NCBI GenBank assembly: GCA_001602415.1
Contig: CP012155.1
Coordinates: forward strand, 2,874,824-2,938,823
DNA from: Bacteroidetes bacterium UKL13-3
GTDB taxonomy: Bacteria > Bacteroidota > Bacteroidia > UKL13-3
Direction: 5' to 3'
DNA: 64,000 bases
A program made the translations under genes and the position numbers. Shown here one piece after another: positions 4,051 to 19,313 of this stretch (within the stretch, counting starts at the first letter, position 1; the number at the start of each line of letters is the position of its first letter). The notes beneath the pieces were generated by a model. It saw only the letters and a list, made by a program, of their open reading frames with translations, did no database searches and was not told the origin of the DNA.

Positions 4051-7008
4051 TCATTTCTCATTAATAGCATCGTAAATAACATCCTGGATGCGAGTGCGTA
4101 CATTCATTTCTACCAGCTTTTTGTTTTCAGCTGAAGGATGTACCCTGTTGCTCAGAAACACGTATACCAATTTATGTTTCGGATCTACCCAAGCGGATGT
4201 TCCGGTAAAACCTGTATGACCGAATGCTTGAGGAGAAACCAACTTACTCACCGGGGATGCTTTTCTAAAATCTGTTTCGGGCTTATCAAAACCAAGGCCT
4301 CTTCGATTCGCTTTTACCTGTTTTTTGGTAAACATATTAACTGTTGATTCTTTTAATATTCGTTTGCCTCCATAGTCTCCTCCGTTGGCAAGCATTTGCA
4401 TAATTATAGCCACATCATTGGCACTAGCAAATATCCCTGCATGTCCGCTCACTCCACCCAACATGGCTGCGGTTTGGTCATGCACGTAACCATCCAACAG
4501 TTGCCATCTAAAAAAAGTATCATCTTCGGTAGGAACAATCCAATCGGGGTTTATTCCCTTTTGCAATGGATTAAATGTAAGGTTAGCCAAATTAAGCGGG
4601 CTGTAAATATTTTTTTGCAAATACTGCTCAAACGGCATTCCACATTGGTGCTCGATAACCTTTCGCAAAAGCATAAATCCTAAGTCGGAATACACATACT
4701 CTCCTGCTGGTTTTACATCTGATTGAATGATTTGTTTCCATAACATTGGTTCGTAATCTTTATGCATAAAAAGATTTTGCGCAACTTGGATAGTATAGTC
4801 AGAATCTTGTGTTTCGGCATAAATGAGATTGCTAGGCTTGCCATCAAGCAATGTTCGTTTGTAAATCGGAATAAATGGTGTTAAACCCGCTTGATGCAAC
4901 AGCACATCATGAATGGTTAACCGTCCTTTATTACTTCCTCTTAGCTCAGGCAAATAATCGCCCAAAGTTGCTTCCAACTTTATTTTGTGTGCATCAAATA
5001 AATGCATTATTCCTACCGTAGTAGCCAGTATTTTGGTAAGCGATGCCACATCATAGAGATGATAATTTTTTACGGGCATTACACTATCATAAGTGTGAAA
5101 TCCAAATGACTTTTGATAAATAACCTTTCCATCCTTTACTACTAAAACTTGTGCGCCAGGCATCGCTTTTTTCGTTATCGCATCTATAACAATTGTATCT
5201 ATCCATTGAAATGGAAAATGATCGATGTTCATTTCTTCTGGATAGATATACTCCATCCGGTCGAGTGATTCGGTAAATTTTCCCATACCCAAAGGAAATG
5301 TTGTATTTACTGTTACTGGGAGTTTGCCTTTAGCACCTATTGCGCCATACAAAACTTGTGCAGCAAGTTGATTGTATTGTTCTAAATCTTCATAAGATAA
5401 AATAATATTGCGTGCGGTTTTAAACTGTTCAAGTATGTATGGATTACCATTGCACACCAATATTACCTTCTTATCCAACGCCAAAACTTTATTCACAAAG
5501 TCAATTTGAAGTGGGGAGAGTCCAAGTTTTTTGGCAACAAACCTACTAGTGTTATGCAAGCTCAACACTACTAAGTTGTATTGTTTTAAGGTAGTAAAAA
5601 GTGTGTCCCATGATGCTGGGGTATCGGCTTTATCAATGCTAAAGTAATCAGCTTTAACATAGTTCATACTCATTTCTTGAAAAGCTGTTAATTGGTTGGA
5701 TCCAACAGCTACGATTGCCTGTTTGTATAATTCAGGATTAGCGATCGGAATAATATTATCATCGTTTTTTACAACAACAATGGCTTGTTTAATTATTTTT
5801 TTGATAGATAAATACGTGTTGCAACAATTTAAGTCCTCCGTTAAACTGTTCAAATTAATAGGTTGATAGTTATTTAGACCTGCCCAATATTTAGCCATCA
5901 ATATCTTTTTACAGCTTTTTTCAAGTTGTGACCGAGGGATGATGCTATCGTTTAAATATTGTTTAATCATGCTAATAGATGCCGAAACATCTTCCACAAA
6001 TTCCATTAAATCATTACCGGCAGCAAATGCTTTTGCAGTAATTTCTCCAGGTTTGTAATAATCCGTTACACCTTTCATATTTAATGCATCGGTAACCACA
6101 ATACCTTCGAAGCCCATTTCATCTTTGAGTAGATTGGTAACAATGGTTTTAGATAATGATGAAGGTGTATTTGCTGTTGAATCCAGAGCAGGAACATTAA
6201 GGTGCGCAGTCATCACACACATTACATCATTTTTAATCAGCTCCCTAAATGGATACAATTCAAGAGAATCTAAGCGTTTGCGATCGCCCTTCACAACTGG
6301 CAAGCTAAAATGCGAATCGGTTTCAGTATCTCCATGCCCTGGGAAATGTTTGGCACAAGCCATCACATGTTGGTTTTGCATTCCCTTAGCATATTGCGCA
6401 CCTAGCTTGGCCACCCAATATTTATTTTCACCAAAGGATCGGTCGTTTATTACCGGATTTCTAGGATTGTTATTTACATCAACATCAGGGGCAAAATTTA
6501 CATGAATGCCCATTCGCCTACACTGATTTCCAACAGCAATTCCCATCTGGTATGCTGCATCTTCATTCTGCGCTCCACCTAATACCATCTGTCGCGGAAA
6601 TGTAAGCACACTATCCAAACGCATTCCAATACCCCACTCTCCATCAATTCCAATTAACAGTGGAACCTTGGTTTGCGATTGAAAATAATTGGTTAACGCG
6701 GCTTGTTTGGTTGGATTGCCTTTGAAAAAAATAAGTCCGCCAACCTTTTGCTCGCGCACAGCACATTCCACTTCCTTAATATGGGTAGAATCTCTGTTGG
6801 AAAAAGCGGCAATCATAATGAGTTGAGCAATGCGCTCATCTTCCGAAAGCGTTTCATAAACTGAATCAACCCAATTGTTTGATTTTCGCCAATTTATTGC
6901 ATCCGACTGTGCAAGAGCATTAAAGCTGATACAAGCAAATGATATGAGAATATAAATAAACTTAAGCTGCTTTCTTTCCATGAACTGTATTTGCAAAAAT
7001 ACGCTCAT
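4051..7008 (-). CDS. glycoside hydrolase family 3 (NagZ-like beta-N-acetylhexosaminidase) fused to a serine beta-lactamase-fold domain, secreted
   Basis: 985 aa. The N-terminal half carries a GH3 motif (KVPLLIGIDGEWGIGMRLD, FPGHGDT). The C-terminal ~400 aa has an S-x-x-K serine hydrolase motif (ASLTKILATTVG) typical of class C beta-lactamase/PBP-like esterases. A signal peptide follows the internal Met (MERKQLKFIYILISFAC), so 6981 is an alternative start. Confidence 0.8.
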   Translation of the reverse strand: MSVFLQIQFMERKQLKFIYILISFACISFNALAQSDAINWRKSNNWVDSVYETLSEDERIAQLIMIAAFSNRDSTHIKEVECAVREQKVGGLIFFKGNPTKQAALTNYFQSQTKVPLLIGIDGEWGIGMRLDSVLTFPRQMVLGGAQNEDAAYQMGIAVGNQCRRMGIHVNFAPDVDVNNNPRNPVINDRSFGENKYWVAKLGAQYAKGMQNQHVMACAKHFPGHGDTETDSHFSLPVVKGDRKRLDSLELYPFRELIKNDVMCVMTAHLNVPALDSTANTPSSLSKTIVTNLLKDEMGFEGIVVTDALNMKGVTDYYKPGEITAKAFAAGNDLMEFVEDVSASISMIKQYLNDSIIPRSQLEKSCKKILMAKYWAGLNNYQPINLNSLTEDLNCCNTYLSIKKIIKQAIVVVKNDDNIIPIANPELYKQAIVAVGSNQLTAFQEMSMNYVKADYFSIDKADTPASWDTLFTTLKQYNLVVLSLHNTSRFVAKKLGLSPLQIDFVNKVLALDKKVILVCNGNPYILEQFKTARNIILSYEDLEQYNQLAAQVLYGAIGAKGKLPVTVNTTFPLGMGKFTESLDRMEYIYPEEMNIDHFPFQWIDTIVIDAITKKAMPGAQVLVVKDGKVIYQKSFGFHTYDSVMPVKNYHLYDVASLTKILATTVGIMHLFDAHKIKLEATLGDYLPELRGSNKGRLTIHDVLLHQAGLTPFIPIYKRTLLDGKPSNLIYAETQDSDYTIQVAQNLFMHKDYEPMLWKQIIQSDVKPAGEYVYSDLGFMLLRKVIEHQCGMPFEQYLQKNIYSPLNLANLTFNPLQKGINPDWIVPTEDDTFFRWQLLDGYVHDQTAAMLGGVSGHAGIFASANDVAIIMQMLANGGDYGGKRILKESTVNMFTKKQVKANRRGLGFDKPETDFRKASPVSKLVSPQAFGHTGFTGTSAWVDPKHKLVYVFLSNRVHPSAENKKLVEMNVRTRIQDVIYDAINEK

Positions 7009-7209
7009 TTCTATTGGTTTTGTATCATCAACAGGCGTTGAAATATCAACAATAATACTAAAATACCCACCTCTCTTAAAGTTGCGTTTACCCAGATATG
7101 GCAGCGTATGAGCAACAATTACAACAAAAATGAAGGATGGCGCGGAAGTTTATCAACACTGTTTTTCAGCCCTTTTAGAATGCTTACCTTGCAACCTGCA
7201 AAGGAAGTT

Positions 7210-11191: not shown

Positions 11192-11758
11192 TTACACATG
11201 CATTACTTCTGCTTCTTTCGTTGCAGTTAAGTCCTCAATTTTTTTGATGTATACATCCGTATTTTTTTGAACCTGTGTTTCTGCTGCTTTAGCTTCATCT
11301 TCAGGCAATCCATCCTTTTGTAAACGTTTAATTGTTTCGTTAACATCTTTACGAATATTGCGCACCGCAACTTTTGCACTTTCGGCTTCAGCCTTTACCT
11401 TCTTCACAATTTCTTTTCTACGATCTTCGGTTAGCATGGGTAATGTAATACGAATGATTGAACCATCATTACTAGGTGTGAAACCTAGGTTAGCAATTAC
11501 AATTCCTTTTTCAATAGCTTGTAATACCGATTTTTCCCACGGTTGTACCGTGATGCTGCGTGCATCAGGAGTAGTAATGTTTCCAACTTGGCTCAACGGA
11601 ACCATTTCGCCATAATATTCTACTTTCACCGAATCCAACATGCTAGGATGTGATTTTCCGGCACGGATTTTTGTAAACTCGTTGGCAGCATGGTCAATGG
11701 CTTTATCCATTGCTACTTTCATATCGTCAAATACTGCTTTTACTCTTGGGTCGCTCAT
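11192..11758 (-). CDS. frr: ribosome recycling factor
   Basis: 188 aa, full-length similarity pattern to Frr (VKVEYYGEMVPLSQVGNITTPDARSITVQPWE). Confidence 0.9.
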   Translation of the reverse strand: MSDPRVKAVFDDMKVAMDKAIDHAANEFTKIRAGKSHPSMLDSVKVEYYGEMVPLSQVGNITTPDARSITVQPWEKSVLQAIEKGIVIANLGFTPSNDGSIIRITLPMLTEDRRKEIVKKVKAEAESAKVAVRNIRKDVNETIKRLQKDGLPEDEAKAAETQVQKNTDVYIKKIEDLTATKEAEVMHV

Positions 11759-11934: not shown

Positions 11935-12642
11935 CTAATGAACCAATGTACCAACGGTTTCTCCGTTACATACGCGCAAGAAGTTTCCTTCTTTGTTCAT
12001 GTCAAATACTACAATTGGTAAGTTATTTTCTTGGCAAAGGGTAATGGCTGTTAAGTCCATAACGTTTAATCCTTTTTCGTATACTTCGCTAAAGGTGATA
12101 TTCTCGTAGCGGGTTGCTGTTTTATCTTTCTCTGGATCGGCTGTGTAAATACCATCCACACGTGTTCCTTTTAAAACCAAATCGGCTTGAATTTCAACTG
12201 CACGAAGTGATGCGGCCGAATCAGTAGTGAAATATGGATTACCTGTTCCGGCTCCAAAAATCACAACACGTCCTTTTTCGAGGTGACGCATGGCCCGTCT
12301 GCGGATAAACGGCTCGCAAATTTGCTCCATCTTTATAGCTGATAGCAAACGTGTTTTGATACCTACACGCTCTAATGCACCTTGCAATGCCATCGAATTG
12401 ATTACTGTTGCCAACATACCCATATAATCGCCCTGAGCCCTATCTACAATACCTCCGGCAACACCCTGTACTCCTCTAAAAATATTACCCCCTCCAATAA
12501 CGATGGCAACTTCAACTCCTTTGTCGGTTACGGTTTTAATATCTTTAGCATATTGATCTAAAATTTTTGCATCAATGCCGTATTGTTGGTCGCCCATCAG
12601 CGATTCTCCGCTCAGTTTAAGCAGTACGCGTTTGTATTTCAT
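11935..12642 (-). CDS. pyrH: UMP kinase
   Basis: [17 protein letters not shown]...[10 protein letters not shown], the amino-acid kinase fold typical of PyrH. Confidence 0.9.
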
Positions 12643-12709
12643 GAAATGGAATGGATTAAAATCAGCGCAAATTAGGGGAATTTGGATGGAAAAAAAATTG
12701 AGTGCCTTA

Positions 12710-13294
12710 TTAGGTGAAATATTTTCCTAAGGAATATACACGGATTATGGAAGAGGTCTATTCCTTTATACTTTCTTTCTTTCTTTCCATTTTGAGTCCT
12801 CGTTCAATAAGAAAATCATTAATGTCAATACACCTTACACCGTGTTTTTCGGCAACTTTAGGAATTTTATTATGTTTTGTTTTACTTTCATTTGTAATTA
12901 AAACATGATTATGAATTATGCAATGCCCAATCAAATAGGGATCTGCCTCTTCCTTACCCTCAGCTTGCTTTTTAGCATCAAAAAAGCCAGACTAATATTC
13001 TTCATTAATGATTGGAATTGTAGCATTCATCGTAGCAGAATCAACTTCAATAACTAAGTGCTTTCTCCATTTTTTAACCCACTTCTTCAAGAAGTCTTGC
13101 TTCCCCTCATAACTATTAATTTCATCTTCAACGAAATTAATAGTTTTAAAATGACCTTGTGAAATCAAATCTTCTACCTCTTCCCAAATGGCTTTAAAAA
13201 CCGGATTATCATAATTAAATGTGAAATCCAAAATTATTAGAGCACTTGTGTCAATTACGTATATGCAATTACCTTGGTTAAAATCTAATTGCAT
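12710..13294 (-). pseudogene. DUF4411 (PIN-like) family gene interrupted by an in-frame TAG at 12992-12994
   Basis: N-terminal 100 aa (YVIDTSALI...NATIPIINEEY) ends at TAG. The same frame continues directly as SGFFDAKKQAEGKEEADPYLIGHCIIHNHVLITNESKTKHNKIPKVAEKHGVRCIDINDFLIERGLKM. Both halves match the DUF4411 pattern (N-terminal PIN-like D-T motif, C-terminal ADPFLIA...VVT.E motif). The frame after the stop was checked codon by codon on the sequence. Confidence 0.6.
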
Positions 13295-13297
13295 CTT

Positions 13298-14446
13298 TTA
13301 ACTATTTAATAATTGCCTCGTTTTTGAAATATAAGAGAGCTTTACTCCCAAAAAATCTGAAAGATCTTTTAAATCAATTCTATTCTGATCAAATGCTGAG
13401 AACGCCAATGATATATAAGATCTTCCTTTTTCCTTAATTGTTTCTTTAGCAATATTTCTACCTTCTGGTTTCTTGGCTCTTCCAAATTGAGGTTTATTCC
13501 AAGCTAGATGTCTGTCCTTATAATACGATGCTGTGGTAAGGCCATTTTCAAGTAAACTTCTTAAAACTGCTAATGGTCCTACATGAAAATAATTGCCGAT
13601 CTCAATTAAATCCTTTTTAGCCCAATTCATTTGCCCCTTTGACTTTTGATCGACCACATTACCCATTTCTAAAAGTTCAGTTGACGGAATTAACATTTCT
13701 GAAGCAAAAGCATTACACCACTTTTCAATTTGTTGGCTTGAGTTCTCCGAAAGATCACATAACCCACCATCGTTTAAAAGAATATGCCCTAACTCATGAA
13801 ATAGCGTAAAAATCTTTGCAGTTGTGGGTTCTCCTCCTCTTTTGATACCAATAATTGGAATACTTTCATCCACTAATGCAAATCCTCTCAAGTTGTCCTG
13901 TGTCATCGTCAATTGAAAGACGGCAACACCCAATGACTCGACTTTATCTATATAACCCTCTAAAGCTAAATTAAGGTTTTCAATTTGTCTAACCTCCATG
14001 ATTCCCCACTGATTTCTATATCTGTTTGCTATCGACCTAGGATCATCATTTATTGATGCTTTATATTGAAACTTGTTAATTTGAATTCCGGCATCTTGCT
14101 TTAATTCAATTAGTGAAACGACAAGTGCTCTAGCTTTCCGAATTGCCATAATTGTCTTTTCGTGGAAATTGCCTAATTCATTAGAATTAACCGTTCTTCG
14201 ATCTAGAGGTAATGGCTTCTCTTTAGGAGGCGCATTGAGTAATAAGGTAGCCATCGTCCTTTTGTAAATCTTCGAAAACTCTTTCAACTCTTCTAATGTT
14301 GGCTGCTTATCGCCTTCTTCCAATTGAATTAGCCGTTTTGCCGATATACCTGTTTTGTCTGATACAAAAGCCCGAGACAATACAATGCTCTCCCTCGCCC
14401 AACGAAGAACCTGATGATTGACTAAAATTATAGCATTCTCTGACAT
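13298..14446 (-). CDS. XRE-type HTH fused to ImmA/IrrE family Zn metallopeptidase (COG2856-like)
   Basis: 382 aa. N-terminal HTH (KTGISAKRLIQLEEGDKQPTLEELKEFSKIY). HEXXH motif (FTLFHELGHILLNDGG) in the central region. Lies 3 bp upstream of the DUF4411 gene on the same strand. Confidence 0.75.
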   Translation of the reverse strand: MSENAIILVNHQVLRWARESIVLSRAFVSDKTGISAKRLIQLEEGDKQPTLEELKEFSKIYKRTMATLLLNAPPKEKPLPLDRRTVNSNELGNFHEKTIMAIRKARALVVSLIELKQDAGIQINKFQYKASINDDPRSIANRYRNQWGIMEVRQIENLNLALEGYIDKVESLGVAVFQLTMTQDNLRGFALVDESIPIIGIKRGGEPTTAKIFTLFHELGHILLNDGGLCDLSENSSQQIEKWCNAFASEMLIPSTELLEMGNVVDQKSKGQMNWAKKDLIEIGNYFHVGPLAVLRSLLENGLTTASYYKDRHLAWNKPQFGRAKKPEGRNIAKETIKEKGRSYISLAFSAFDQNRIDLKDLSDFLGVKLSYISKTRQLLNS

Positions 14447-14523
14447 TGAAATATCTTATCTCCTGTAAAAATAATTTATTTTAATTCTGTTACAATATAA
14501 CATTATATAATTCAGTAGAAGCA

Positions 14524-14562
14524 CCAACAAAAACGCCCCGATCCAACAGGAACGAGGCGTTT
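14524..14562 (-). terminator. intrinsic terminator downstream of tsf
   Basis: On the minus transcript: AAACGCCUCG-loop-CGGGGCGUUU stem followed by UUUUGUUGG. It sits 24 nt after the tsf stop and before the ImmA/DUF4411 module. Confidence 0.55.
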
Positions 14563-14585
14563 CATATTCGGTATCTCTATTCAGA

Positions 14586-15419
14586 TTAACCTAAAGCAAC
14601 ACGTTTGAATGCTTTTACAGATAAACCTTTTTCAACACCATCTAACATTTGAGCGATGGTTTTTGAACTATCTTTCACAAATTCCTGATTTAACAAAGTA
14701 GACTCTTTGTAGAATTTACCCAATTTACCTTCAGCAATTTTTTCAATCATGTTTTCAGGCTTTCCTTCGGCACGCACTTGCTCTTTTGCTACTTCAATTT
14801 CGCGGGCAACAACTGATGCATCTACATCGCCTTTATCTAATGCTAATGGATTTAATGCAGCAATTTGCATGGCTACATCTTTACCAGCAACAAAATTAGC
14901 TTCGTTAGCAGCAGAAGTTAATGAAACCAATACACCTAAACGGTTACCCGCGTGGATATAAGGAACCAAGTTATCGCCTTCCAAAATTTCGTAGCGAGTT
15001 ACGTCAACTTTTTCACCAATTTTTCCAACTTGTTCCATTAAACGTTCAGCAAGTGTTACGCTTCCCATTGTTAATGCCTTTAAGGCATCAAGATCAGCCG
15101 GTTTGTTAGCCAAGGCTAAATCAGCAACCTCATTCGCAAATGCAACGAAATCATCGTTTTTAGCAACGAAATCTGTTTCACAAGCCAACAAGATTACTAC
15201 TCCTGTTTTTTTATCAGCAGAAGTTTTAGCAATAACTGCACCTTCTTTAGCGTCACGGTCTGCACGAGCAGCCGAAATTTTTTGTCCTTTTTTACGTAAG
15301 TAATCAACTGCAGCATCAAAATCACCGTTGGTTTCGGTTAATGCTTTTTTGCAATCCATCATACCTGCACCGGTTAATTGGCGCAATTTGTTAACGTCAG
15401 CAGCACTAATAGTACTCAT
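14586..15419 (-). CDS. tsf: translation elongation factor Ts
   Basis: MSTISAADVNKLRQLTGAGMMDCKKALTETNGDFDAAVDYLRKKG is the canonical EF-Ts UBA-like N-terminus. The start is the internal ATG at 15419. Confidence 0.9.
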   Translation of the reverse strand: MSTISAADVNKLRQLTGAGMMDCKKALTETNGDFDAAVDYLRKKGQKISAARADRDAKEGAVIAKTSADKKTGVVILLACETDFVAKNDDFVAFANEVADLALANKPADLDALKALTMGSVTLAERLMEQVGKIGEKVDVTRYEILEGDNLVPYIHAGNRLGVLVSLTSAANEANFVAGKDVAMQIAALNPLALDKGDVDASVVAREIEVAKEQVRAEGKPENMIEKIAEGKLGKFYKESTLLNQEFVKDSSKTIAQMLDGVEKGLSVKAFKRVALG

Positions 15420-15491
15420 AGTATGTTCTTTCTTTAAAGTTTTTGTTAAAAAATAATTCAAAAAAAATCGGCCTAAGCCGATTTTTCAATG

Positions 15492-16659: not shown

Positions 16660-17103
16660 TTAGAATTTTAATGGTTTAGGTTGTTGTGCTGCATGCGGAT
16701 GCTCTGTTCCTGCGTACACGTAAAGGTTTCTGAAAATTTCAGCTCCCAATTTGTTGTTAGGCAACATACCTTCAATAGCATGCTCAACAGAATAGGTAGG
16801 CTTTTTAGCCATCATATCCTTAGCCGTAACAAAACGTTGTCCACCCGGGTGACCTGAGTAAAATACATACTCTTTGTCAGCCAGTTTGTTTCCTGTGAAA
16901 CGAATCTTCTCAGCATTGATGATGATTACGTTGTCGCCACAGTCCACATTGGGAGTAAAACTCGGCTTGTGTTTACCTCTTAAAATGTTCGCTACCTTAG
17001 AAGCGAAACGGCCTAAGGTTTGACCCTCGGCATCCAATACAAACCACTCTTTATTAACAGTAGCTTTATTGGCAGATTTTGTTTTGTAACTTATATTGTC
17101 CAC
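16660..17103 (-). CDS. rplM: 50S ribosomal protein L13
   Basis: 147 aa, [28 protein letters not shown]. Confidence 0.95.
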
Positions 17104-17265: not shown

Positions 17266-17742
17266 TTAAATTGACGTTTTTAGGAACTTTTTCCAACGGT
17301 AAGTGCCTTTTGTATCATACACATATATTAGATAAGGACCGGGAGCCATGTACGTAATGTCGATTTGCAGATACTCGCGCGGTAGAGCTGTTATTTCGCG
17401 CTGGAACCATAATTTGCCATAAAAATCAACAATAAACAATCTGCTAAAATTGGGTGTTGCCTGAACAAGGGTAAAATAGATATAATAGGGGTCGTAAGTA
17501 GGAATAATATCAAACTCAAAACCTGAGCAGGAGCCATCCGTAATTGTTCTAACACCATTCCTCAAACGTGCATCGCAGTCGTTTCTATATGTATTGTTAT
17601 CACAACCACAAACAGGATAAAACTCATTGTTGGGGCATGGGAAACCAGGACTGATAGACAATGAATCAATACACCCAAAAATTTGCGCATTTATATTTAA
17701 GACCATAAAAAATAATATGAGTAAGGTAAGGGTATATTTCAC
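17266..17742 (-). CDS. secreted Kazal-type protease-inhibitor domain protein with T9SS C-terminal sorting domain
   Basis: Signal peptide. Cys pattern CPNNEFYPVCGCDNNTYRNDCDARLRNG (Kazal-like). C-terminal IDITYMAPGPYLIYVYDTKGTYRWKKFLK resembles a type-A T9SS CTD. Confidence 0.55.
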   Translation of the reverse strand: MKYTLTLLILFFMVLNINAQIFGCIDSLSISPGFPCPNNEFYPVCGCDNNTYRNDCDARLRNGVRTITDGSCSGFEFDIIPTYDPYYIYFTLVQATPNFSRLFIVDFYGKLWFQREITALPREYLQIDITYMAPGPYLIYVYDTKGTYRWKKFLKTSI

Positions 17743-18242: not shown

Positions 18243-19313
18243 TAACCTGAGTTCGGTTTAAGCAGCTAATGTCAATTGTTGTTCAAGTTGCTTGATAAGC
18301 TGAGGGTTTGTTTCCTCAATATCTTTTTTGATGGAAGGTTTTTTAGGAAAGAAAGAATACGCAGCAATTGCACTCATAATATTAAGAAGAAAACCGCTGA
18401 TAGAGCGATGTCTTGTATGTTCAACTTGACAAATGTTTTTTAACTCATCATTTACGGTTTCAATCACGGACCGTTTCCTTAAAAGAAGTTTCTCTTCATT
18501 GCTCAATGCTTTAGATTTCATGTTTCTTCTTACAGCTGTAATGAGTTGTATACCGTTGCCAAAAAGCAGATCACTCAATGCTTTTGAGATATATCCCTTA
18601 TCTCCAAATAGTTTTCCGAAAAGGTCTTTAGTCATATTGGTAATTGTTTTAGCATCTCTATCATCCACATTTCCTTTGGTTAGAAAGAAAGATAATATCT
18701 CACCTTTGTCGTTTATAATCAGGTGAAGTTTAAAGCCAAAGAACCATCCCATTGATGATTTACCAACATCTGCAAAGCCTTTAAATGTTTTATTACGCTT
18801 TATCCTTTTGTTGTGACAAACACGCAGTACAGTATAATCAATAAAGCTAATGCCAGTGCACTCGCCTTTGCAACAATGATGGAGAAACAACATGAATGCA
18901 ATAGCACAACGATGACTCAATTCAACAAACCTGTTATAGGAAACCAATCCGGGAAAATCTTCTCTTAAATGAACAGACACATAGTCCACATAAAAATGCT
19001 TGAAATTCCTGAATTGACCACCATGAAACGCAATCAGGAGTGTGATAATTTCAGAGTCACACATTCCGGCTTTTCTATTTCTTGTTTTAACGTTTGATGG
19101 TGCGGGTAATTGGTGTTTTGAATACAAAATTTCAAATTCATTGCAGAAATCATCAACTTTTACAAAAGTTTCTGTAATTTTATCTTGTAGCATTGGTGTG
19201 TTTTTTATGTTTTTTTGGACTACAAAATTAACACTTCCAATGCTACTAATTATTTGATTACCAAATAATTATAAACAAAATAATCAACACTTTCTTATCC
19301 CGAACTCAGGTTA
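18243..19313 (-). mobile_element. IS982-family insertion sequence (~1.07 kb) with 13-14 bp terminal inverted repeats
   Basis: Terminal IRs AACCTGAGTTCGG (18244-18256) and CCGAACTCAGGTT (19300-19312) flank a single transposase ORF. The size is typical of IS982. Confidence 0.7.
18258..19193 (-). CDS. IS982 family DDE transposase
   Basis: 311 aa. N-terminus ...KVDDFCNEF... and C-terminal DKGYIS...LITAVRRNMK pattern characteristic of IS982 transposases. Confidence 0.85.
   Translation of the reverse strand: MLQDKITETFVKVDDFCNEFEILYSKHQLPAPSNVKTRNRKAGMCDSEIITLLIAFHGGQFRNFKHFYVDYVSVHLREDFPGLVSYNRFVELSHRCAIAFMLFLHHCCKGECTGISFIDYTVLRVCHNKRIKRNKTFKGFADVGKSSMGWFFGFKLHLIINDKGEILSFFLTKGNVDDRDAKTITNMTKDLFGKLFGDKGYISKALSDLLFGNGIQLITAVRRNMKSKALSNEEKLLLRKRSVIETVNDELKNICQVEHTRHRSISGFLLNIMSAIAAYSFFPKKPSIKKDIEETNPQLIKQLEQQLTLAA

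Follow-up and report, generated by a model that had tools for sequence, protein, structure and literature searches.

The window analysed here, a stretch of 64,000 nucleotides (nt) from Bacteroidetes bacterium UKL13-3 (contig CP012155.1, positions 2,874,824 to 2,938,823), was found to carry a two-gene cassette between tsf and pyrH, in which a gene for a 382-amino acid (aa) helix-turn-helix (HTH) metallopeptidase of the ImmA/IrrE type is followed by a DUF4411 gene with a premature TAG. It is very probably a horizontally acquired HTH-ImmA/IrrE and DUF4411 cassette of the Rosmer-like type II toxin-antitoxin (TA) or abortive-infection type, the toxin of which is dead in this strain. This reading draws on the domain identities of the two genes, the nonsense allele and its frequency, an empty site, the presence of the pair in other genomic contexts, the PIN-like fold modelled for intact DUF4411 and the occurrence of both families in one PDB entry. 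All coordinates are those of the whole window. The cassette and the flanking block are read on the minus strand, in the order rplM, rpsI, rpsB, tsf, 382-aa open reading frame (ORF), DUF4411 frame, pyrH and frr, with the following features:

16660-17103, minus strand: rplM
14586-15461, minus strand: tsf
14524-14563, minus strand: intrinsic terminator of tsf, a hairpin and T-run (from folding and a terminator scan)
12700-14525, minus strand: accessory segment of 1826 bp (from alignment with contig L012, which has an empty site)
13298-14446, minus strand: gene for the 382-aa HTH and M78 protein (Pfam, PADLOC and PDB matches)
13784-13798, minus strand: HEXXH zinc motif (HELGH, residues 217-221)
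12758-13294, minus strand: DUF4411 frame, a pseudogene in the window, with an intact allele of 174 aa (Pfam PF14367)
12992-12994, minus strand: premature TAG, codon 101 of DUF4411
12771-12787, minus strand: (GAAA)n repeat in the last DUF4411 codons (tandem repeat finder)
12643-12699, minus strand: 57 bp directly upstream of pyrH, common to the empty-site allele (one mismatch)
11935-12642, minus strand: pyrH

A preliminary description of this DNA had placed two co-oriented genes between the tsf terminator and pyrH, and both the gene order and the terminator were confirmed. The terminator hairpin folds at -21.8 kcal/mol (z = -5.0) with a T-run after it, has a homologous hairpin in contig L012 (-23.5 kcal/mol) and stays on the tsf side of the insert. 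As a terminator follows tsf, tsf and pyrH presumably form separate transcription units. No terminator-like hairpin was found between the DUF4411 stop codon and pyrH (fold z = +0.27). An Rfam scan of the whole window gave no match, and a sigma-70 promoter scan, the model of which does not cover Bacteroidota promoters, performed no better than on shuffled sequences. The G+C content of the accessory segment is 34.0% compared with a window mean of 38.3%, a value as low being found in 1.3% of windows of the same size. The segment had been described as AT-rich and of about 1.9 kb; it is modestly AT-rich, but the insert runs from 12700 to 14525 and does not fill the whole spacer of 12643-14585.

The 382-aa protein was found to combine an HTH_3 domain (8.5e-8, 32.6 bits against a cut-off of 23; residues 14-66, positions 14249-14407) with a Peptidase_M78 domain (8.7e-15, 55.1 bits against a cut-off of 22; residues 170-294, positions 13565-13939) in Pfam. 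Together with the HELGH motif, which is also conserved in the partner proteins of three further copies of the cassette (L100, L101 and L103), these matches agree with the earlier view of an XRE-type HTH fused to a HEXXH metallopeptidase. The protein also matches the PADLOC RmrA model PDLC03949 over residues 9-330 (3.2e-20), along with 14 further RmrA models, and aligns at full length with chain A of PDB entry 9vzy (3e-30, residues 9-376 against 2-383). In NCBIfam its only matches were below threshold (spr1629 repressor/antitoxin, 49 bits with a cut-off of 335), and plasmid matches to the peptidase were all below 30% identity. The exact protein is encoded on 10 loci of the exact-protein look-up and a 382-aa product is called at all occupied loci; no copy has a disrupted regulator gene. 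It is predicted to be the antitoxin and regulator of the cassette, an RmrA-like member of the ImmA/IrrE group (COG2856).

The DUF4411 frame starts 3 nt past the stop codon of the peptidase gene and translates in the window as 100 residues, TAG, and then 77 residues. Both halves had been assigned to DUF4411, and a check with the PF14367 profile hidden Markov model (cut-off 23.5) showed that each passes the Pfam threshold alone: the N-terminal half with 3.1e-9 and 37.3 bits at profile positions 1-82, and the C-terminal half with 6.7e-12 and 45.9 bits at positions 97-158. When read through, the frame scores 4e-25 and 88.9 bits over positions 1-158 of 159. It also matches chain D of 9vzy (‘DUF4411 family protein’) at about 5e-7 to 8e-8. 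NCBIfam gave no match for DUF4411, and a scan of IMG/VR viral contigs with the DUF4411 alignment retrieved no relative. A PADLOC match to Cas10 (0.004) was rejected as spurious. The DUF4411 fragments AMS27751.1/HCP93059.1 and HCP93058.1 should be annotated as one pseudogene and not as two hypothetical proteins.

Hundreds of relatives of the intact DUF4411 protein were found, the best 120 listed being 71-99% identical and 172-184 aa long, with 71-80% identity given for the family. When these were aligned, the family-invariant columns included D15, E56, E58, D118 and D157, while position 101 proved to be variable (Q, N, K, S, T, R, H or G). An AlphaFold prediction of the intact 174-aa allele P0121 reached a predicted local distance difference test (pLDDT) value of 83.8 and a predicted template modelling (pTM) score of 0.81. 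In a Foldseek search with this model the top 25 matches were VapC/PIN toxins (template modelling [TM]-score 0.46-0.69, E-values of 7e-5 to 1e-3), at a sequence identity to VapC of 10-18%. Intact DUF4411 therefore models as a VapC-like PIN alpha/beta fold. The window product ends after residue 100 and so loses D118, D157 and the last two beta-strands, at 131-134 and 155-157; it does not hold the full set of conserved acidic residues in one polypeptide.

The state of the TAG codon was compared in 19 sequences, comprising the window and 18 metagenome or metagenome-assembled genome (MAG) contigs (ENA, JGI, Logan and NCBI) found by exact-protein look-up. The tsf-pyrH spacer is near-identical across the compared contigs (13 variable columns in 1944). 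Position 12994 is T (TAG) in 14 of the 19 and C (CAG, Gln) in the remaining five, L001, L002, L004, L010 and L014, where the product is a normal 174 aa with all of the conserved acidic residues. Three of the contigs (L008, L009 and L019) do not differ from the window over some 8.9 kb. The 100-aa product occurs on 22 contigs of the protein collection and intact variants on 4+1+1 contigs; the dead-toxin allele is commoner than the intact one in public freshwater metagenomes. The claim that one nonsense mutation had silenced the effector and left the regulator whole was upheld by these counts and by a 382-aa gene that is intact throughout; the disabling lesion is a single C-to-T change (CAG to TAG) at codon 101.

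Two further lesions were seen on TAG alleles only, both of them frameshifts: an inserted A at 12894 (L007 and L011) and an inserted GAAA at 12784-12787 (the window, L008, L009 and L019). This suggests that selection has ceased to act on the half past the TAG. The second of these lies in the repeat at the 3′ end of the frame, which had been described as a TTTC-rich run of about 100 bp and is in fact a 17-bp array at 12771-12787, (CTTT)4.2 or (GAAA)4 on the coding strand, and the sole tandem repeat reported by the tandem repeat finder. Intact alleles have three GAAA units and the family-typical C-terminus ...MERKKV, whereas the fourth unit in the window, L008, L009 and L019 shifts the frame of the C-terminal tail to give ...MERKKESIKE. 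The substitutions D4H and P31L were also considered as decay on TAG alleles and were dropped, both being present on the intact Q101 allele P0001 as well. All four combinations of D4H and TAG exist, which implies recombination, recurrent mutation or chimeric assembly.

The accessory nature of the cassette was revealed by contig L012, which encodes an identical PyrH protein and is 96.7% identical to the window at the DNA level over 3.4 kb either side. Its tsf-pyrH spacer is 157 bp long and has no cassette. In the alignment 1826 bp of the window (12700-14525) stand against 43 unrelated bp in L012, and the stretch that differs between the occupied and empty sites starts right past the T-run of the terminator and stops 57 bp short of pyrH. 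Over the flanks compared, the occupied contigs show an identity of at least 98.4% (at least 99.6% for all except L001). Among species representatives retrieved with Tsf, pyrH lies 22-270 bp downstream of tsf in about 40 of 80, and in none of the 80 other Bacteroidota species was an ImmA or DUF4411 gene found between tsf and pyrH; the nearest of these species (L021, Tsf 73%) has a spacer of 125 bp. The empty site in L012 and the absence from all 80 species establish that the cassette is accessory. With the pair also present elsewhere, this comparison of relatives favours the acquisition that had been proposed for it, and gain in this clade is the parsimonious, though not proven, reading of the sequences. 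A further contig, L020 (CALRRW020000154.1), carries the GTDB title ‘Comamonas sp. lk’ but has Bacteroidota rpsB-tsf genes with a Tsf 94% identical to that of the window, and looks like a mislabelled or mis-binned MAG; it ends 139 bp past tsf, where the cassette or spacer would begin.

The spacer has also been occupied by other genes. A nagA-like amidohydrolase gene of 363-377 aa lies between tsf and pyrH in Pedobacter/Mucilaginibacter-like genomes (L025, L030, L032 and L075), and in Flagellimonas (L058 and L065) the spacer holds a four-gene cluster of an extracytoplasmic function (ECF) sigma factor and anti-sigma factor, which indicates that this junction has repeatedly gained genes in Bacteroidota. 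It had been called unusual for a housekeeping operon to host a cassette of this kind, but this was overstated, as the insert lies past a terminator, the spacer hosts other genes and some copies of the cassette elsewhere sit between ordinary housekeeping genes.

Pairs of 382 aa and 173/174 aa were found elsewhere with 70-75% DNA identity confined to the coding sequences of both genes. In every context examined, DUF4411 follows a 382-aa HTH-M78 gene (70-75% identical to that of the window), with a gene spacing of 2-4 nt in L100, L101 and L103 compared with 3 nt in the window. The copy in L100 adjoins aspS and HD-domain genes and that in L101 adjoins ada-like and DUF58 genes, while the copy in L103 (1-4787) is near type I restriction-modification and GIY-YIG genes and that in L105 (3625-6689) is near genes for a Peptidase_C14 caspase-like protein, a ParA-like ATPase and a RelA_SpoT-domain protein; these neighbours in L103 and L105 are candidate defence genes. 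A distant ImmA/IrrE and DUF4411 pair is present on a Methylorubrum plasmid. The two genes are thus co-oriented, tightly spaced and kept as a pair across contexts (five other kinds of locus and a plasmid), as is expected of a type II TA system. No operator or promoter shared outside the coding sequences was detected when the upstream regions of five cassette copies were aligned.

Modules of HTH-DUF955 and DUF4411 were reportedly predicted as TA modules by Makarova et al. in 2009. A three-component TA system has likewise been predicted in which DUF4411.1, downstream of a fused DUF955-HTH, serves as the toxin (Matelska et al., 2017; PMC5499597). The cassette resembles these predicted TA modules in having an XRE-HTH/M78 fusion directly upstream of a single-domain DUF4411, and differs in that the DUF4411 gene of the window has become a pseudogene, its codon 101 being a stop and its repeat one unit longer. 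Antitoxins with ImmA domains (RmrA) have a wide range of toxin partners in Rosmer-type defence systems, PIN-like toxins among them (PMC10440598; bioRxiv 10.1101/2022.05.11.491447). Like RosmerTA (Millman et al., 2022; Ernits et al., 2023), the cassette has an RmrA-matching antitoxin and the logic of two genes for a toxin and an ImmA antitoxin. Unlike RosmerTA, its toxin matches no RmrT, and one characterised RmrT depolarises membranes whereas a PIN-like predicted nuclease is found here.

PDB entry 9vzy holds a 393-aa ‘HTH cro/C1-type domain-containing protein’ and a ‘DUF4411 family protein’, the latter being present alone in 9vzz. Both cassette proteins match chains of 9vzy, but as distant relatives, the DUF4411 chain of the PDB being 162-174 aa and the HMMER alignment being of low identity. 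The presence of chains of both families in one entry supports direct binding of the partners. No paper describing the entry was found in the literature for 9VZY/9VZZ. The intact toxin also recalls VapBC, as its fold is closest to VapC and D15, E56/E58, D118 and D157 fit a PIN-type metal site; in contrast to VapBC, the partner is not a small VapB but a 382-aa HTH-metallopeptidase, a much larger antitoxin which is encoded first. The regulator and effector (TA-like) module postulated in the preliminary description is in keeping with the RmrA matches, the PDB entry and the VapC-like model.

On this basis, the two cassette genes, being 3 nt apart, would be co-transcribed. DUF4411 would act as a metal-dependent nuclease resembling VapC and, in its free state, bring growth to a halt; the 382-aa HTH-peptidase would bind and neutralise it and may repress the cassette's own promoter through its HTH domain. 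A trigger such as phage infection or stress would disable the antitoxin and so free the nuclease. The 1826-bp cassette probably took the place of about 43 bp when it landed or recombined in just past the terminator of tsf, 57 bp ahead of pyrH, with illegitimate or homologous recombination as candidate mechanisms. A later C-to-T change would have converted codon 101 from CAG to TAG with loss of the C-terminal half of the PIN fold, and the dead allele would then have begun to collect further frameshifts. With the toxin lost past residue 100, the module is expected to be non-functional as a TA or defence system and its antitoxin and regulator to be an intact orphan.

The TAG could in principle be a sequencing or assembly error in a gene that is intact in the organism, given that the UKL13-3 genome is a PacBio RS/HGAP assembly with 211 annotated pseudogenes (PMC5248499). 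PacBio RS data typically suffer from indels, whereas the lesion is a substitution. The same T recurs in 13 other assemblies that differ in project and assembler, with the truncated product on 22 contigs, so that an error can practically be dismissed. Decoding of the TAG by a suppressor tRNA, read-through or an alternative code would yield a full-length toxin, possibly in low dose; any inserted residue would probably be tolerated at the variable codon 101, and the frame downstream of the TAG is still open in most TAG alleles. Such decoding is highly improbable, as TAG ends 12 of the 39 long ORFs in the window, the adjacent pyrH included, no tRNA gene lies within the window and two independent frameshifts downstream occur on TAG alleles only. 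The TAG is a genuine stop and a natural polymorphism, neither an assembly error nor a recoding event.

The function and the history of the cassette also have competing explanations. Control of mobile elements and of stress regulons is a known role of ImmA/IrrE peptidases that have HTH partners (PMC10440598), and the peptidase has weak NCBIfam matches to phage repressor families; the pair might accordingly be an ImmA/ImmR-type switch that outlived the decay of a mobile element or prophage, DUF4411 being an unrelated passenger. No integrase, phage or conjugation genes lie beside the cassette here or at the five other loci and no relative was found in IMG/VR, while the genes travel as a pair of fixed size whose DNA homology does not extend beyond the two coding sequences, and chains of both families occur in one PDB entry; this explanation is very improbable. 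It is somewhat less improbable, but still unlikely, that the cassette is ancestral to the species and was deleted in the L012 lineage instead of being a recent insertion. Replacement of 1826 bp by 43 bp without a target-site duplication fits deletion as well as insertion, and the empty site was retrieved in one contig (L012). The 80 other Bacteroidota species, with the next relative L021 among them, have no such cassette at the site, the segment deviates in composition, and the same pair occurs at unrelated loci elsewhere. Even a cassette that was ancestral and later deleted would count as accessory, having been acquired at some stage of this lineage.

Several observations weigh against an acquired Rosmer-like TA cassette with a dead toxin. 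No terminal inverted repeats or target-site duplication beyond chance level were found at 12700/14525, and the accessory segment holds the two cassette genes alone, with no recombinase, transposase or integrase gene. The 43 bp specific to L012 have no meaningful similarity to the outgroup spacers (L021 and L020) or to the insert, and gain in this clade as opposed to loss in the L012 clade is not directly resolved. DUF4411 gave no PADLOC match to RmrT or to another defence toxin even at E-values up to 10, and by the two-gene rule of PADLOC (RmrA and RmrT) the locus is not called Rosmer; for lack of the RmrT match it was filed as a Rosmer-like HTH-ImmA/DUF4411 module and not as a Rosmer system. 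The searchable literature contained no experiment on this pair or on any DUF4411 protein, and the toxicity, the neutralisation and the anti-phage role are deduced from the context of the family, autoregulation and the trigger being inferences as well. The haplotypes come from metagenome assemblies and are possibly partly chimeric, and the evidence of decay consists of the two frameshifts, in small numbers.

Acquisition followed by loss of the toxin leaves an orphan regulator. The dead-toxin allele might be favoured and not merely drifting, although this is doubtful. The orphan HTH-peptidase may be kept as an ‘anti-addiction’ immunity factor that protects from homologous cassettes entering the cell or from DUF4411 toxins carried by phages. 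Alternatively, since no terminator separates the cassette from pyrH, the HTH-controlled promoter of the cassette may now contribute to pyrH-frr expression. Either idea would, if true, account for the excess of TAG alleles over intact ones (22 versus 6 contigs) alongside a regulator that is intact everywhere.

Several other polymorphisms were observed in the neighbourhood. A gene for a 311-aa DDE transposase (18258-19193, minus strand; DDE_Tnp_1_3, 1e-72) lies between a NUDIX gene and a 141-aa gene upstream of rplM. It is missing at that position in L012 and L011, and the majority of metagenome contigs end no more than a few hundred bases away from it, which marks it as another polymorphic insertion, at 3.7 kb from the cassette. 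A gene for a Kazal-domain secreted protein (17266-17742, minus strand) varies at five sites, with three alleles at two of these, among contigs otherwise at least 99.6% identical. All of the changes are non-synonymous (M13K, N38K, E40D, Y89D and Q126K), and this gene may be under diversifying selection. In L001, which has the intact toxin allele, about 27 substitutions fall within 150 bp of frr (window 11540-11687) with scattered differences in rpsB and tsf; to judge from the pattern of substitutions, the frr tract looks like a recombination import from a more divergent strain. The GH3/beta-lactamase-domain gene adjoining mutL (4051-7008, minus strand) encodes 1017 aa in L002, L004, L010, L013 and L014 and 976-985 aa in the others. 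Its distance to mutL also differs, which places the polymorphism at the 5′ end or in the mutL spacer (near 7009-7107), and it partly tracks the intact-toxin haplotype.

Modules of this kind are already known and the biology added is modest, the locus contributing one well-resolved natural example of the HTH-ImmA/DUF4411 modules. It presents three allelic states at one locus in one freshwater Bacteroidota species, namely empty, with an intact cassette and with a dead toxin, the last being the commonest. The intact CAG allele provides a ready matched pair for testing the toxicity of DUF4411 and its neutralisation by the peptidase. The dead allele with its first secondary frameshifts fits the order expected for the decay of a TA system, in which the toxin is lost first and the antitoxin is retained.

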